A stretch of DNA of 50,834 nt, taken from assembly GCA_945788325.1 (NCBI GenBank), contig CALZLL010000001.1, positions 1-50,834 of the forward strand. The letters are read 5' to 3'. Under the pieces are notes generated by a model. The model saw only the letters and a program-made list of their open reading frames with translations. It was not told where the DNA came from and did no database searches. The first letter of the stretch is position 1; every line of letters begins with the position of its first letter. The position numbers were made by a program, and so were the translations under genes. This document shows positions 1,610-34,363 of the stretch, in pieces. This DNA comes from an uncultured Clostridium sp. (lineage in GTDB: Bacteria > Bacillota_I > Bacilli_A > RF39 > UBA660).

Positions 1610-2936
1610 GAAAAAATTAATGGAAGAATTTGAAATAAAAGAAGAAAAAGTAACTACTAAACCAGTTGCGGATTATGATATATTTAAAGATAAAGAATTA
1701 TTGGATAATTTAAGAAATAGTATTATTTCTAATTTGATTGATGATAAAATTCCTGATAATAAACTGCTTCATGAATACATAAATGATGAAATTGATAAGG
1801 CTCTTTTAGGATATGATTTAACAAATTTAGAACGTAGTCATATATTTAACTTAATTGATAATGAAATAAATGGTTATGGTCCTATTACGGAGCTGTTAGA
1901 AGACCCTAATATTACCGAAATAATGATTAATGGAGAAAATGAAGTTTATGTTGAAATAGATGGTCAAATTAGTAAGGATGAATCTGTTTCATTCATTAAT
2001 GATGAACACATCATAAGAACCATTCAAAAAATAGTTCAACCATTAGGTAGAACGATAGATACCGCAAATCCTATGGTAGATGCAAGATTAGAAGATGGAT
2101 CAAGACTTAATGCGGTAATACCACCATTGTCATTAAAAGGACCAGTTGTTACGATAAGAAAGTTTAGACGAGATATGGAAACGATTGAAGACTTTTTAAG
2201 AACTGGTGCAATGACACCTTACATGGCACGTTTTTTAGATGCTGCGGTAAGATCTAAACTAAACATAATTATATGTGGTGGTACAGGCGCTGGTAAAACA
2301 ACTTTACTTAATGCTTTATCTTCATTCATTGGTGATCATGAACGTATTATTACAATTGAAGATGCAGCTGAGTTAAGACTTAATCAATCACACGTAATTA
2401 GTCTTGAAACAAGGTTAGTAAATTATGAAGGTACCGGAGAAGTTACCATTCGTGATTTAGTTATAAATTCACTTCGTATGAGACCAGATAGAATAATTGT
2501 TGGAGAAGTACGTGGTAAAGAAGCATTTGATATGCTTCAAGCCATGAATACCGGACATGATGGTTCTCTTACAACGATGCATGCTAATAGTCCAGTAGAG
2601 GCTTTAAACAGACTAGAAACCATGGTTTTAATGGCTGGTATGGAAATACCAATTAAAGCTATTAGAGAATATATTGAAAACGCAATAGATTTAGTAGTTA
2701 ACGTATCAAGATTATCAGATGGAAGAAGAAAAGTAACTAGTATTTGTGAAGTAGATGGTTTTAAAGAAGATATGATTGAATTAAAAGAAATATTTAATTT
2801 TAAACAAACTGGTTTAACAAATGCTGGAGAAGTAGATGGATCATTTGATCTTAAAAAACGTATTCCAAAGGTTTATAACAAAATTAAAAGTAGAGGTATA
2901 GATGATTTAGACGACATATTTAAATTTAAAAAATAG
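1602..2936 (+). CDS. tadA: Tad secretion ATPase (CpaF/TadA family, VirB11-like)
   Basis: Walker [15 protein letters not shown], then [21 protein letters not shown] and [13 protein letters not shown], which are typical of CpaF/TadA. Confidence 0.9.
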
Positions 2937-4757: not shown

Positions 4758-6059
4758 ATGGAAAAAGAAAGAAGAGCAAAAACATTAAGTATAGTAGCTT
4801 TAATAGTTGCAATATTAGGCTTAACAATAGCGTTTGCAACACTATCACAAACACTAACAATAAATGGAAGCGCATACTTAAACGCAACAAAGTGGGGAAT
4901 AAAGTTTGAAAACTTATCATCACCAATAAAGGTAGGTGATGCAACAGTTACTGGGGAAGCTAAAATAAATGAAAGTACCTACGTAGAAATAGCAAATATG
5001 AACGTTAATTTAAAAACACCAGGAGATAGTGTTACATATAACGTAGATTTAGTAAACGAAGGAACAATAAATGCAAAAATAGATGAAATAGTAAAAACTA
5101 CAACACCTGATTATTTATCATTTAAAGTAATAAAACAAGATAATAAAGAATTAGAAGAAGGATATGTATTAGGTAAAGAAACAAGAATACCCTTAAGAAT
5201 AGAAATAGAATTTAAGAAAGATATAACAAAAGAAGACTTACCAAAAGAAGCAATTACAATAGAACTATCATATGCTTTAACATTTGTACAAACGGATGAA
5301 ACCGCTACAAGCATTGGACAAACTCCATCATCAGCATGTACAATATTTGATAAAAAAGATACATACCAAGTAGGAGATGAAATAGCCCTATGTAATAATG
5401 ATACAAATAAATCAGAAGACTTCTATGTAATAAGTGATAATGGAGATACAGTAACAGCGCTAGCTAAGTATAATTTACTTGTTGGTAATGAAGTTGAAAT
5501 AGATAATTTTGAAGATTATAATATAGTTAGAAATGATCCGATAGATTCATCAACTACTGGATATGGATTGCAAAATAGTAGTGCAAAAGCATTTGTATTA
5601 GATAACACTATCTGGACTGGAACAATAGTATTTGCCGAAGATAAAAATAAGGGTAATGGATATTGGGCACCAACTGGTAGTCTCTTAAGTACGTATGGAA
5701 CAAGTTATCCAGCATACGTATTTGATGAAAATTCATTATTATATGAACCATTAAAGAATTATGAATCATATATAAAAACAACATTAGGAAAAACAAGTGT
5801 AAATACTAGTTTATTAACCTATGAGCAAGCTACTAGCTTAGGTTGTGTTAAAGATAATCGTACATGTGAAGCTGCACCTAGTTGGGTATATGAAACGTCA
5901 TACTGGCTTGGTTCTGCTCTCGGTGGAAGCTCTGTTCCAGGTGTTGAGTCGTATGGCGGTTTCGAATGCTGGTATGACTTCAACTACGACATCTACTTCA
6001 ACAGTGGCTACCCTCTCGGTTTGCGTCCAGTCATAACAATAGCTAAAACTGATTTATAA
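4758..6059 (+). CDS. Surface protein paralog A: N-terminal signal-anchor, beta-rich N-domain (TasA/camelysin-like by motif, tentative), C-terminal lectin-fold-like domain ending in a hypervariable segment
   Basis: N-terminus MEKERRAKTLSIVALIVAILGLTIAFATLSQTLTINGSA, then PGDSVTYNVDLVNEGT. C-terminal pattern LLTYEQATSLGC ... SYWLGSA-(variable)-GLRPVITI resembles DUF1566 / C-type-lectin-fold DGR targets. The gene is certain; the functional call is tentative. Confidence 0.5.
   Translation: MEKERRAKTLSIVALIVAILGLTIAFATLSQTLTINGSAYLNATKWGIKFENLSSPIKVGDATVTGEAKINESTYVEIANMNVNLKTPGDSVTYNVDLVNEGTINAKIDEIVKTTTPDYLSFKVIKQDNKELEEGYVLGKETRIPLRIEIEFKKDITKEDLPKEAITIELSYALTFVQTDETATSIGQTPSSACTIFDKKDTYQVGDEIALCNNDTNKSEDFYVISDNGDTVTALAKYNLLVGNEVEIDNFEDYNIVRNDPIDSSTTGYGLQNSSAKAFVLDNTIWTGTIVFAEDKNKGNGYWAPTGSLLSTYGTSYPAYVFDENSLLYEPLKNYESYIKTTLGKTSVNTSLLTYEQATSLGCVKDNRTCEAAPSWVYETSYWLGSALGGSSVPGVESYGGFECWYDFNYDIYFNSGYPLGLRPVITIAKTDL
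5919..6032 (+). other. Candidate DGR variable region (VR-A) within paralog A
   Basis: Of 38 codons, 18 end in C (ctc agc ggc ttc tgc gac ttc aac tac gac atc tac ttc aac ggc tac ctc gtc), versus 2 of the first 38 codons of the same gene. 20 of 114 nt are A. The segment ends 9 codons before the stop. Confidence 0.55.
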
Positions 6060-6195: not shown

Positions 6196-7260
6196 ATGAA
6201 AAAGGATATAGTTGAATACTTGGGATTTGATGAGGAAGAAGAAAAGAAAAAAGTAGGAAGACCAAAACTTGCTGATAAAGAAACAAAAAGAAAATCTTTA
6301 ATTATAGCTAGTGTATCTTTTTGTGCAGTTATTCTATTACTAATTTTTGGATATGGAACTTTATTTGGATTTAAAAATTTAAATTTAAAAGGTACCGTTA
6401 GTAATAATGAAATAAATCAAGATACGTTAGTTGAAGAAATAAAACCACTTGTTAAAGATATAACTCTTAAAACTGGTACTGCAAGAAAGGTATATTTAAC
6501 TGTTTTACCAGCTAGTGCAAACGATAAATCTATAAGTTATAAAAGTTCTGATGAATCTGTTGCGATAGTTGATAATGAAGGTAAAGTTACTGGAATATCA
6601 GTTGGTAATGCTACTATAACTGCTACTACTAATGATGGTTCTAACTTAAGTACCACATTTAAAGTAAAGGTAATTAAAAACGCAGAAGGAAAATGTGTTT
6701 TTACATCACTTTCAAAGACTTCAAATGGTATAGAATATGAAACTGAATGTAATAATGCAAAGATAAAGGAAATACAATATAAAGTAGGAGACGATAACTT
6801 TGAAAAGTTACTTACTAAAAAGACAACTGATGAAGTTAAGTTTTCTAAAGATCAATTAGATAATAAAATAACTTTTAAAATAGTATATTATCCAAATAAT
6901 AGTAAAATTACTAAATACGAAGTTAAAACATTAAATGGCAAAGAAAAAACTACTAAAGCACCTACTGGAAATTGCTCTCTTATATTAAAAGATGTAAAGG
7001 CATCATCTGCTAAGTATGATATAACGTGTGATAATGCTAGTGTTACTAAAATTGCATATAAGATAGGAAATGGTAGCTATATTGGTCTTGAATCAAGTAG
7101 TTTAGCTGACACAATATTATATGAAGAAAGTGATGTAACAAGGGTTATATACTTTAATATAGAATATGTAATTGATGGAACTAATAATGTTAAAACAATA
7201 ACAAAAAGTAGTATAATAGAAAAGAAAATAATAAATAATGATGTAGAAGGAGAAATGTAA
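6196..7260 (+). CDS. Membrane-anchored protein: N-terminal KVGRPKLA motif, TM helix, Big_2-like Ig domain, two Cys-pair repeat modules
   Basis: EEKKKVGRPKLADKETKRKS followed by hydrophobic LIIASVSFCAVILLLIFGYG. SDESVAIVDNEGKVTGISVGNATITATTNDGS is Big_2-like. Modules GKCVF...ECNNAKIKEIQYKVG and GNCSL...TCDNASVTKIAYKIG. Confidence 0.5.
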   Translation: MKKDIVEYLGFDEEEEKKKVGRPKLADKETKRKSLIIASVSFCAVILLLIFGYGTLFGFKNLNLKGTVSNNEINQDTLVEEIKPLVKDITLKTGTARKVYLTVLPASANDKSISYKSSDESVAIVDNEGKVTGISVGNATITATTNDGSNLSTTFKVKVIKNAEGKCVFTSLSKTSNGIEYETECNNAKIKEIQYKVGDDNFEKLLTKKTTDEVKFSKDQLDNKITFKIVYYPNNSKITKYEVKTLNGKEKTTKAPTGNCSLILKDVKASSAKYDITCDNASVTKIAYKIGNGSYIGLESSSLADTILYEESDVTRVIYFNIEYVIDGTNNVKTITKSSIIEKKIINNDVEGEM

Positions 7261-7261
7261 A

Positions 7262-7645
7262 ATGGCAAAGAAGGAAGAAAAAAATAAAGTAGGAAGACCA
7301 AAACTAGCTGATAGTAAAACAAAAAAGGAATCAATATTTATATGTATTTTTACTATGGTTGTAATAACAATTGTAGCTATTTTGGGATATAATATTTTAA
7401 CGATTGATTTTAATCCCAAATATAATGTTGGTTCAATTTATAATACTCATGTTTCATCTTGTGTAATTGAAGATAAAAAAATTGATTGTGGACCTAACGT
7501 TACTTATATGAAGTATAAATTAGATAATGAAGGTTGGATAGAAGTTAGTAAACAAGATAAAAGCATAGAAGTAGCACTTGATAATAATAAAAAAGTTGAG
7601 TTTTGCTATAAAACTGATAAAACTGATATAAAATGTAATAAATAA
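7262..7645 (+). CDS. Small membrane-anchored protein: N-terminal KVGRPKLA motif plus one Cys-pair module
   Basis: KEEKNKVGRPKLADSKTKKES followed by TM IFICIFTMVVITIVAILGY. C-terminal CVIEDKKIDC...YMKYKLDNEGW. Confidence 0.5.
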   Translation: MAKKEEKNKVGRPKLADSKTKKESIFICIFTMVVITIVAILGYNILTIDFNPKYNVGSIYNTHVSSCVIEDKKIDCGPNVTYMKYKLDNEGWIEVSKQDKSIEVALDNNKKVEFCYKTDKTDIKCNK

Positions 7646-22904: not shown

Positions 22905-24197
22905 GTGGAAAAAGAAAGAAGAGTAAAAGCACTAGCAATAGTAGTACTTGTAATAGCAGTGCTAGGGCTTACAATAGCATTTGCAGCATTATCACAAACA
23001 CTAACAATAAATGGTAGTGCAAAACTAGATGCATCAAAATGGGGACTTAAGTTTGATAATCTAGTATTAGCATCAGGAAATGAATATGTAGAAGGAACTG
23101 CAAATATAAAAACAGATGATAATACTGTAATAGAAAATATGAACGTAAGATTAACAACACCAGGAGATAAAGTAGTATATACGGTAGACTTAGTAAATGA
23201 AGGAAGTATAAATGCTAAGATAGATAATATAGTAAAAACAGTATTAACAACCGAGCAAGAAAAATATTTATCATTTAAAGTATTAAAAGAAAATAATGAA
23301 GAATTAAATGAAGGATATGTATTAGGTAAAGAAACAAGAATACCACTAAAAATAGAAATAGAATTTAAAAAAGATATAACGAAAGAAGACTTACCAAAAG
23401 AAACAAGTACAATAACGTTATCATATGGTGTAACATTTGTACAAACAGATGAAAAGATAGCAACAACAGGACAAGGACCTACAACAGCATGTACAATATT
23501 TGAAAAGAAAAGTGCATATAATGTAGGAGATGAAATAGCCCTATGTAATAATGATACAAATAAATCAGAAGACTTCTATGTAATAAGTGATAATGGAGAT
23601 ACAGTAACAGCTCTTGCTAAGTATAATTTACTTGTTGGAAATGAAATCGAACTTAATAATAAAGAAGAAGTTATTGTATCTAATATTGTTAGAAAGGATC
23701 CAATAGATCCATCAACACCTGGATATGGATTGCAAAGTAGTGAATCAAAAGGATTTATATTAGATAATACTGTATTTATCGGAATAATAAACTTTGCTGA
23801 AAATAATACTATTGGATATTGGGCAGAATCAAGAACTGCACTTTTAAGTAAATATGGAACAAGTTTTCCAGCATATGTATTTGATGAAAATTCATTATTA
23901 TATGAACCATTAAAGAATTATGAATCATATATAAAAACAACATTAGGAAAAACAAGTGTAAGTACTAGTTTATTATCTTATGAGCAAGCTACTAACTTAG
24001 GTTGTGATAAAGCTAATAAAACATGTGAAGTTGCACCAAGTTGGGTATATGAAACATCTTACTGGCTTGGTTCTGCTGCCAATGGTCTCCACGTGATGGG
24101 CGTTGCATCGAATGGTTCCTTAGCGAATCACAGCTTCTACACCGAATTCCGTTTAGGTCTTCGCCCAGTTATAACAATATCAAAAACTGATTTATAA
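22905..24197 (+). CDS. Surface protein paralog B (same architecture as 4758..6059)
   Basis: GTG start after RBS aggagg. The N-terminus and several internal blocks are near-identical to paralog A at nucleotide level. C-terminal SYWLGSA-(variable)-GLRPVITISKTDL. Confidence 0.5.
   Translation: MEKERRVKALAIVVLVIAVLGLTIAFAALSQTLTINGSAKLDASKWGLKFDNLVLASGNEYVEGTANIKTDDNTVIENMNVRLTTPGDKVVYTVDLVNEGSINAKIDNIVKTVLTTEQEKYLSFKVLKENNEELNEGYVLGKETRIPLKIEIEFKKDITKEDLPKETSTITLSYGVTFVQTDEKIATTGQGPTTACTIFEKKSAYNVGDEIALCNNDTNKSEDFYVISDNGDTVTALAKYNLLVGNEIELNNKEEVIVSNIVRKDPIDPSTPGYGLQSSESKGFILDNTVFIGIINFAENNTIGYWAESRTALLSKYGTSFPAYVFDENSLLYEPLKNYESYIKTTLGKTSVSTSLLSYEQATNLGCDKANKTCEVAPSWVYETSYWLGSAANGLHVMGVASNGSLANHSFYTEFRLGLRPVITISKTDL
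24078..24170 (+). other. Candidate DGR variable region (VR-B) within paralog B
   Basis: Of 31 codons, 12 end in C (gcc ctc cac ggc tcc cac agc ttc tac acc ttc cgc). 18 of 93 nt are A. Same position in the domain as VR-A but 21 nt shorter. Confidence 0.5.
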
Positions 24198-33442: not shown

Positions 33443-34363
33443 ATGAAAGAATGGCTTTTAAAGGATGAAAAGAATAAAGTTGGAAGACCAAGATTAGCTA
33501 GTGACGAAGTTTTAAAAAAAGCTAAAATATCAATTGCGGTAGGTTTTATAATTAGTTTTGTTCTTATGTTTTCCTTTTTTAGCATCTTAAAAGGCACAAC
33601 TCCTACAAAATACGCATATTCTCTTACTTTAGAAAAACTATTTGGAGAGTTAACAAATAAAAATGGTTTTATAGTAAGTGATTATTATGATAAAAATGAT
33701 GATTATGTTATGGAATTTAAAGTTCCAGACGTAATATATAATTATTCAGGATCTTATAAATATACATTATATGAACTTAATAATAACGAATGGAAAGAAA
33801 AAGATAGTAAAACAATTGATAAAGAAGAAAGAAGTTTTAAGATAAAAGTTAAATCTTTAAAAAACCAAAATAAAACTTGGAAGATAAAGTTACAAATTAT
33901 AAATGCTACCAATATAAAAGAAGCTTATAACCCATCTTCTTGGCAATTTAATGATTCTAAAAATACTAAAGATATGTATGCGTATAAAGTATTTACTGTA
34001 AAAGGATATTATAGCCCGGTATTAAATGAAGAATTAAAAGAATCTAAAAAGAGTAATGATAAAATAACGATAGATACTAAAAAAGAAGATCCTAGAAGTT
34101 TTATTGTAAATTTAAATGATGGGGTATATAACGTGGTTGTTAAATATACTGATACAGCTTCTAAGGAAGTTTTACTAGCAAATGATAAAGAAGTAAGTGG
34201 AATAAAAGAGTATGTAATACCTGGATTAGATCGCTCTACTAAGGTGGTATTTAAAATTTATGGTGAAGATGTTAAAAGTAAGAGATTATCTAATTGGCAA
34301 TATCAAGAAAGTAAAGGATATATTACTAATAGTTATGTTTTAAAACCAGAAAAAGCATATTAA
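33443..34363 (+). CDS. Membrane-anchored protein with N-terminal KVGRPRLA motif (third family member)
   Basis: DEKNKVGRPRLASDEVLKKAK followed by TM ISIAVGFIISFVLMFSFFSIL, then a beta-rich ectodomain containing YTLYELNNNEWKEKD, which resembles YKLDNEGWIEV of 7262..7645. Confidence 0.5.
   Translation: MKEWLLKDEKNKVGRPRLASDEVLKKAKISIAVGFIISFVLMFSFFSILKGTTPTKYAYSLTLEKLFGELTNKNGFIVSDYYDKNDDYVMEFKVPDVIYNYSGSYKYTLYELNNNEWKEKDSKTIDKEERSFKIKVKSLKNQNKTWKIKLQIINATNIKEAYNPSSWQFNDSKNTKDMYAYKVFTVKGYYSPVLNEELKESKKSNDKITIDTKKEDPRSFIVNLNDGVYNVVVKYTDTASKEVLLANDKEVSGIKEYVIPGLDRSTKVVFKIYGEDVKSKRLSNWQYQESKGYITNSYVLKPEKAY

Follow-up and report, generated by a model that had tools for sequence, protein, structure and literature searches.

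The window analyzed here, a stretch of 50,834 nucleotides from an uncultured Clostridium sp. (contig CALZLL010000001.1 of assembly GCA_945788325.1), contains three open reading frames (ORFs A, B, and C; Table 1) that carry KVGRP(K/R)LA within residues 9-27, ahead of a single transmembrane (TM) helix beginning about 15 residues past the valine of the motif. All three read as an earlier note on this DNA had described them. The N-terminus of A is MKKDIVEYLGFDEEEEKKKVGRPKLADKETKRKS, that of B MAKKEEKNKVGRPKLADSKTKKES, and that of C MKEWLLKDEKNKVGRPRLASDEVLKKAK, each followed by the TM helix; the corresponding motif regions up to the helix are EEEEKKKVGRPKLADKETKRKS, KEEKNKVGRPKLADSKTKKES, and KDEKNKVGRPRLASDEVLKKAK. 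A Shine-Dalgarno sequence is found 7-9 nt 5' of the ATG of each gene. A start codon 3' of the motif was rejected, as there is no in-frame start before the TM helix, the annotated ATGs are preceded by good Shine-Dalgarno sequences, and the residues ahead of the motif are conserved. The ectodomain of A includes a Big_2 domain (Pfam, E = 1.3e-14). B, which starts 2 nt past the end of A and is missing in some genomes, has an ectodomain with no similarity to the Cys modules of A. In the AlphaFold2 model of C (predicted local distance difference test, pLDDT, 87.5) the motif forms a coil, followed by helix 21-49, which spans the juxtamembrane and TM segments, and by two beta-sandwiches that match FN3 tandems (Foldseek). 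Below, the shared N-terminal segment with the motif and the TM helix is called the module.

Table 1. The module genes of the window and other features mentioned in the text. Coordinates are those of the window unless a contig (C2 to C55) of the source genome is named.
Feature	Position	Strand	Description
ORF A	6196..7260	+	354 aa; N-terminal module, Big_2 domain, two Cys-containing beta modules
Motif K-V-G-R-P-K-L-A-D in A, residues 19-27	6250..6276	+	
TM helix of A, residues 35-59	6298..6372	+	conserved face S34/S41/L48/G52/L56
L-K-G of A, residues 64-66	6385..6393	+	conserved post-TM site; possible signal-peptidase (-3, -1) site
ORF B	7262..7645	+	127 aa; N-terminal module and small Cys-containing ectodomain
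Motif K-V-G-R-P-K-L-A-D in B, residues 9-17	7286..7312	+	
TM helix of B, residues 25-47	7334..7402	+	
ORF C	33443..34363	+	306 aa; N-terminal module and two beta-sandwich (FN3/Ig-like) domains
Motif K-V-G-R-P-R-L-A-S in C, residues 12-20	33476..33502	+	AlphaFold2: coil just ahead of long helix 21-49
TM helix of C, residues 29-49	33527..33589	+	followed by K-G-T-T-P
Family D gene	C55, about 1790-2000	-	between ylxM and ffh, after ftsY; also at loci L014 and L016
Degenerate sixth copy	C2, 32518-32736	-	60-72 aa ORF by miaA
Second-leader genes	window 4758-6059, 22905-24197; C4 10236-11531; C8 13183-14583; C34 115-1356; C24 4576-7476; C12 1845-4849		
WXG100-like genes and 917-aa protein gene	C3, 12306-17787	-	
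Spo0A C-terminal domain gene	C4, 29016-29327		

The motif is confirmed as real and as occurring far beyond chance. A genome-wide search, which had been proposed as a check, did find enrichment at N-termini before TM helices. From the amino-acid composition of the source genome (755 kb in 69 contigs, 26.8% GC, 67% complete), 0.08 VGRP[KR] and 1.3 GRP[KR] sites are expected; five GRP[KR] sites were observed, all within the first 30 residues and ahead of a TM helix. Three of these sites are those of A, B, and C; the other two belong to family E, represented by a 114-aa protein encoded on contig C9, and to family D, represented by a tail-anchored protein of 70 aa from contig C55. A degenerate sixth copy, KVGRPSKID followed by a TM helix (MAKGKVGRPSKID), has serine in place of Lys/Arg after the proline; its ORF reads MAKGKVGRPSKIDKDTMKAANIS up to the TM helix.

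The DNA pattern of VGRP[KR] has 1-16 matches per genome of about 1.1 Mb in the genus of the source organism, against about 0.2 per genome for a reversed-pattern control. In other families of the class its matches are at chance level and unrelated, for instance in Lon, and in 150 genomes from about 100 other genera of the same family the pattern stays at background. Sporadic matches fetched from other genera lay in non-coding frames, in Rep proteins, or in helix-turn-helix arms of transposases. When 185,579 GTDB species genomes were scanned for K-V-G-R-P-[KR]-L-A-D, 73 stretches were returned. Five of these are chance matches of high GC; about 68 come from Clostridium sp. CAG:594 and from low-GC metagenome-assembled genomes (MAGs) that bear the labels uncultured Bacilli, Mollicutes, or Mycoplasmatota, some of them wrongly. 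The GTDB genus CAG-594 is 'Ca. Aphodocola' of the order RF39 (PMC8035907), and the source organism probably belongs to this genus or to one very close to it. With a 48-residue profile of the module, 38 of the 39 genomes of the genus were positive, with 2-15 copies each, and genome G159 of the same genus (95% complete) had no module protein at all. In G216, a genome of a second genus and the closest outgroup sampled, as judged by TadC and EzrA identity, at least six paralogues carry KNKVGRPKLAKKEL...TM...LTGKSPLELL. Profile building and taxonomic profiling, a further check suggested earlier, thus confine the module to one genus and one genome of another. The first DNA pattern missed the copies in genomes G020 and G002 (loci L167, L168, L180, and L181), because both their motif Arg codons are CGT, CGC, or CGA, which are rare in genomes of 27% GC. 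The MAGs carrying the module are labelled as coming from rabbit, Hadza human, chicken, and mouse gut. A phage or plasmid origin was rejected, since only chance matches (E >= 2) came up when the module was compared by tblastn with 50,697 phage records and 72,556 plasmid records.

Against 1.84 billion representative proteins, the module profile matched 217 clusters at E <= 1e-3 and 124 at E <= 1e-10; a search with the N-terminal 60 residues of A returned A orthologues only. The match starts within the first 33 residues in all of the best 150 of the 217, and the module proteins among the matches listed are 36 to 1452 aa long, with one motif copy per protein. Numbered from the valine (position 0), the N-terminal logo comprises a short family-specific start, E(-5) E(-4) K(-3) x K(-1), V-G-R-P-K/R-L-A-D(+7), x-x-L/T-K-K-x-S/A(+14), and a hydrophobic stretch of about 23 residues ending near +38. 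Gly, Arg, and Pro are invariant in 150 of the best 150 profile matches, as in 44 of 44 sequences of the C family, and Val precedes Gly in 147 of the 150; the acidic neighbors of this core, Glu-Glu at -5/-4 and Asp at +7, are conserved. Conserved positions of the helix, namely S/A14, S/C/A21, (V25), L28, G32, and L36, lie on one face within an arc of about 80 degrees, and the positions beside this face vary freely. Past the helix, [LIVMF]-x-G is found at fixed spacing in 105 of 136 proteins; KLKG stands near +44 to +47, families C and E and the G216 paralogues having KG/TG-x-(S/T)-P near +38 instead.

For an unbiased test of conservation, the query for homologues of C was limited to residues 70-306. 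Of the full-length homologues, 45 of 45 carry [VI]GRP[KR]LA, with G, R, P, L, and A invariant and position +7 variable, at ectodomain identities of 43-97%. Orthologues located by synteny in G002, G020, and G006 also keep the core, which reads VGRPLLAR in G006. The codons of the motif are not fixed: those of Val (GTA, GTT, GTG, GTC), Gly (GGA, GGT), Pro (CCA, CCT, CCC), and Ala (GCT, GCA, GCG, GCC) vary, as do those of Arg (AGA, AGG, CGA, CGT, CGC, including exchanges of AGA and CGN) and Leu (CTT, TTA, CTA, CTC, TTG, including exchanges of CTT and TTA). Since codons vary synonymously while the residues stay, this comparison indicates that the constraint acts on the peptide and not on DNA or RNA. 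Purifying selection on the peptide is strong in the extended segment of 8 residues and on one face of the helix. A nucleotide-level element, such as an internal Shine-Dalgarno-like GGAAGA or a recombination site, was rejected because third positions and whole Arg and Leu codon families vary with the residues fixed.

The tail with the motif is predicted to be cytoplasmic, as the earlier note had proposed. Lys and Arg number 5.0 in the 15 residues before the helix versus 2.4 in the 15 after, with net charges of +3.4 and +1.4, respectively; this bias agrees with the positive-inside rule. The positively charged n-region and the hydrophobic h-region (Kyte-Doolittle window means of 2.3-3.4) at the N-terminus are those of a Sec-type signal or anchor.

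Ectodomain similarity distinguishes at least ten unrelated families headed by the module. Among 79 members, Pfam found LRR (leucine-rich repeats, 15), HL_N-beta (9), choline-binding repeats (5), M23 (4), and C39-like/C39_2 (4), together with Big_2, fn3, dockerin, GDSL and SASA esterases, Amidase_2, and H_lectin, and all these cargo domains are extracellular. Thirty of the 55 members of at least 400 aa have a further TM helix at the C-terminus, with a short basic tail behind it. Members with such a C-terminal anchor or with wall-binding choline repeats are expected to shed the N-terminal leader. The module marks a small subset of exported proteins, because the source genome has about 120 other ORFs with a predicted hydrophobic helix at the start and no more than two such helices in all; ordinary leaders of the AXA, lipoprotein (lipobox), pilin, and TasA/SipW types are among these. 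For instance, one module family shares its lectin domain with the window gene at 4758..6059, which itself has a different, TasA/SipW-like leader. A second, paralogue-specific leader, MEKERR.KALAIVVL...(V/G)(A/Y)A.(L/F)S.TL.I.G.A, was observed on lectin-type and several small proteins, and it resembles the 'SipW-cognate' signals of TasA and camelysin. The source genome has one LepB-type and one SipW-like signal peptidase gene; the latter, of the type of the endoplasmic reticulum and archaea, is located on contig C12, as is one of the second-leader genes.

No N-terminal Pfam or NCBIfam model, including those for YSIRK, KxYKxGKxW, and SipW-cognate signals, matched A, B, or C at E <= 1, and a literature search for the motif returned no matching description. 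The module belongs to none of the known signal families compared here and is best described as a genus-restricted leader/sorting signature, so the initial impression that this is not a described signal holds. A Tat signal (S/T-R-R-x-F-L-K before the h-region) was rejected, as the motif has a single Arg followed by Pro and ends about 8 residues short of the hydrophobic segment. The leader of type IV prepilins and Flp pilins was rejected as well: the motif Gly is 14 residues from the helix, there is no Glu at +5, and the true TadE-like and pilin-like ORFs of the same genome read KG|QALVEF and KG|FTLIE. Nor does the motif fit a C39 double-glycine leader.

We suggest that the motif is the signature of a lineage-specific N-terminal leader/anchor and serves, on the cytoplasmic side, as a protein-recognition tag; the probability of this reading is roughly 0.5. 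A sorting or recognition tag had been offered earlier as the alternative interpretation, and it is the one favored by the evidence. A leader/anchor module of about 60 residues would have reached its many extracellular proteins, which are otherwise unrelated, through duplication and the shuffling of domains, its basic tail remaining in the cytoplasm while the hydrophobic segment carries the cargo through the membrane via Sec. The extended invariant peptide V-G-R-P-K-L-A would be a short docking motif for a protein that targets, places, retains, or processes the marked surface proteins, in the manner of YSIRK/GXXS, KxYKxGKxW, and twin-arginine motifs, and the conserved TM face and the post-TM [LI]-x-G site may point to a partner or to processing. 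The balance tips slightly toward the module being cut off at [L/I]-x-G by signal peptidase, rather than kept as a type II anchor, because C-terminal anchors or wall-binding repeats are already present in many cargoes, the lectin-type cargo domain begins 5-8 residues past KLKG, and Leu at -3 with Gly at -1 fits the peptidase rule. The [LIVMF]-x-G site is compatible with the -3/-1 rule, though atypical in its Leu/Gly pair and long spacing.

Several observations weigh against this reading. The statistics of the logo and of conservation are partly circular, the sequences having been found through the motif. At about 23 residues, the hydrophobic segment is longer than is usual in classical signal peptides that are cleaved, and so is the spacing to KLKG, which lies about 9 residues further on. 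Nor is the core strictly confined to signal peptides, because family D, whose members are tail-anchored proteins of 63-78 aa, has it in NPVGRP[KR]KKYG, 35 residues from the C-terminal TM helix. The module is dispensable, because G159 lacks it entirely. Finally, no partner was found among the neighbors of the module genes, nor was the one candidate protein examined confirmed as such. When the ORFs of 70 loci were clustered in search of a dedicated neighbor, the recurrent neighbors were housekeeping genes (tad, ezrA, polC, the gene of a Clp-type ATPase, tyrS, and that of RNase J). In a comparison with all 78 contigs of G159, 192 of the 764 ORFs of the source genome have no counterpart, too many to single out a partner; A, B, C, E, and the degenerate sixth copy are included in this set. 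In G159 ezrA is directly followed by the deacetylase-like gene, with no C, and the block of X (493 aa), E, and a thioredoxin-like membrane protein, otherwise located between the Clp-type ATPase gene and rsmI, is missing (loci L191-L284). The thioredoxin-like multi-TM protein was rejected as the partner: in a test of 60 genomes it is found in most module-free genera and is absent from six module-bearing genomes.

Family D also bears on a possible link to the signal recognition particle (SRP). Small tail-anchored proteins similar to D follow ylxM in several other genera and in G216, ending in ADALIL and a TM helix and lacking the GRP core; in the other genera they are followed by the gene of a Clp-type AAA+ ATPase (ClpC/ClpB-like). 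In G002 and G159 ylxM is directly followed by ffh, with no D, and G002 has module proteins nonetheless. Because D-like proteins elsewhere lack the core and G002 has the module without D, the link of the motif to the SRP operon is inconsistent and only suggestive.

The genomic positions of A and C are stable across the genus, with the gene orders tadZ-tadA-tadB-tadC-A-(B)-DUF421-YfhO and ezrA-C-(deacetylase-like)-polC. In other genera, sister genera among them, tadC is followed by yebC, without an A gene, and ezrA by the deacetylase or other genes; in G216, with tadC followed by mraZ, neither A nor C is found at these sites. Thus A and C are genus-specific insertions into housekeeping operons, not long-standing components of the Tad system or the divisome. 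The earlier remark that two copies lie right after the Tad locus therefore stands as to position, A and B following tadC in nearly every genome of the genus, and the link is positional only. A was rejected as a Tad component, since it follows tadC in this genus only and the module heads proteins in many unrelated places. For instance, family E comes after the Clp-type AAA+ ATPase gene (ClpC/ClpB-like), and giant LRR proteins are encoded beside tyrS or the RNase J gene. Two further observations concern these genomes. Five or six WXG100-like proteins of about 95 aa are encoded next to the gene of a 917-aa protein on contig C3 and are absent from G159; this cluster looks like a locus of type VII secretion substrates and a toxin. 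A gene for the Spo0A C-terminal domain was seen in the source genome and in 12 others of the genus (13 of 13), although these genomes are only about 1.1 Mb in size.

Alternatively, the module could be a permanent type II anchor that is never cleaved, its motif recruiting a cytosolic adaptor or cytoskeletal protein to position or cluster the ectodomains. We consider this less likely than the reading above, although it is a serious rival and survives better than the others. FtsA binds the tail of FtsN, which provides one precedent. Another precedent for adaptor docking is GpsB, which binds cytoplasmic mini-domains of penicillin-binding proteins (PBPs) (PMC6335420). The long hydrophobic stretch (about 23 residues), with a conserved face typical of helix-helix packing, would suit an anchor. 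So would the position of C directly after ezrA, the fact that families A, B, C, and E have nothing else to anchor them, and the occurrence of the core in a protein whose TM helix is C-terminal and for which a signal peptide is out of the question. However, many members have their own C-terminal TM anchor or wall-binding repeats, and an uncleaved lectin-type protein would have a tether too short to reach through the wall. The motif is also unlike the GpsB-binding S-R-x-x-R-(R/K), and no adaptor was identified, no search aimed at adaptors having been made.

It is improbable that the motif has no specific function and descends, frozen, from the common ancestor of a young 5' cassette with paralogous copies, retained only for the basic tail that topology requires. 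Such a history would agree with the confinement of the module to one genus and one genome of another, with the species that does without it, and with the recent insertion of A and C between conserved genes. However, positions -2, +8, +9, and most TM positions are free and the ectodomains have diverged beyond recognition, whereas G, R, P, L, and A do not change at all. Synonymous turnover inside the motif, including two-step changes of Arg codons, argues in the same direction, and topology needs positive charge only, not V-G-R-P-x-L-A.

The resemblance to an AT-hook, raised in the earlier note, did not hold up under comparison. As a hook, G-R-P would enter a minor groove, either in AT-rich DNA or in a structured RNA (SRP RNA, for instance), tethering the nucleoid or the targeting particle to membrane proteins or nascent chains. 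Single GRP arms (GRPR in the Hin recombinase) enter minor grooves, and extended AT-hooks bind RNA. The invariant G-R-P-(K/R) core lies in a lysine-rich, cytoplasm-facing tail of an organism with 27% GC, the motif segment is extended and non-helical in the AlphaFold2 model, and the more hook-like NPVGRPKKKYG of family D is encoded inside the SRP operon. However, the residue before Gly is Val, not Arg, in the 147 matches mentioned above, and the core is flanked by the conserved Glu-Glu and Asp. Groove binding leaves the invariant Leu and Ala unexplained, and each protein has a single copy. Pfam AT_hook gave no match at E <= 10 to the full tails or to peptides of 22-25 residues, HMMER filters possibly hiding very weak matches. 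With ordinary secreted enzymes and adhesins as generic extracellular cargo, and with the inconsistent SRP-operon link (D-like proteins without the core in other genera and G216, and no D in G002), we regard an AT-hook as a poor explanation. Poorer still is its elaborated form, in which V-G-R-P-K-L-A would be a nucleic-acid targeting hook on the minor groove of SRP RNA by the Ffh signal-binding groove, or on the AT-rich nucleoid, such that leaders are captured co-translationally with extra affinity and the tail-anchored copy of ftsY-ylxM-ffh is the membrane-side counterpart.

The YSIRK, KxYKxGKxW, twin-arginine, LPXTG, and PEP-CTERM motifs each led to a targeting route or a sorting enzyme. The signature described here is equally sharp and is undescribed in Pfam, NCBIfam, and the literature searched; it marks 2-15 surface proteins per reduced genome (about 1.1 Mb) of an uncultured gut genus. 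The motif thus offers a handle for listing the surface proteome and the adhesins, including the LRR giants and lectins, and G159, as a natural null, makes the search for a recognizing factor testable by phylogenetic profiling. It is mainly relevant to researchers who study protein export or the uncultured Bacillota of the gut, and the narrow taxonomic range caps its general importance.

Among known systems, the YSIRK/GXXS signal peptides of staphylococcal and streptococcal proteins (PF04650; PMC5962339) share with the module a short conserved motif in the N-terminal part of the leader and lineage restriction. Both kinds of leader are found on only some of the large surface proteins, and the cargo that they head is unrelated (LRR, Ig-like, and others). 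YSIRK acts before or at translocation, as the module would, and no dedicated gene neighbor is known for it either. The sequences are unrelated: YSIRK abuts the hydrophobic segment, whereas the module motif is about 10 residues upstream of a longer segment with a conserved face, and no LPXTG or sortase context was seen with the module. The function of YSIRK in septal secretion has been shown, whereas the role of the module is a proposed one. The KxYKxGKxW motif of accessory-Sec substrates (TIGR03715) and the ESPR of autotransporters (PF13018) are likewise charged, conserved N-terminal extensions before a Sec-like signal, in long leaders of big adhesins; they do not match the module in sequence, and the module is limited to a single genus and one neighboring genome.

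The AT-hook (PF02178; HMGA-type R-G-R-P) also has G-R-P followed by Lys/Arg in a lysine-rich unstructured segment; the module differs from it in Val for the first Arg, acidic residues on both sides, invariant Leu-Ala, a single copy, membrane tethering, and the lack of a match to the hidden Markov model. In the GpsB-binding mini-domains of PBPs (PMC6335420), as in the module, a short conserved peptide with an Arg is set at constant spacing from the TM helix of bitopic proteins whose N-terminus is cytoplasmic, but their consensus is S-R-x-x-R-R/K, read by a cytosolic adaptor, and their cargo is cell-wall synthases only. The tripartite C-terminal signals of the LPXTG/sortase, PEP-CTERM/exosortase, and GlyGly-CTERM/rhombosortase systems resemble the module in their three-part build of motif, TM helix, and basic cluster, and in their paralogous families, varied cargo, and strict lineage restriction, a pattern from which sorting enzymes were later predicted. 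The module is their mirror image, being N-terminal with its strongest motif in the cytoplasm, and it has no known cognate enzyme. By these likenesses, the module appears closest in function to YSIRK/GXXS, KxYKxGKxW, and ESPR and closest in design to the tripartite C-terminal sorting signals, mirrored.

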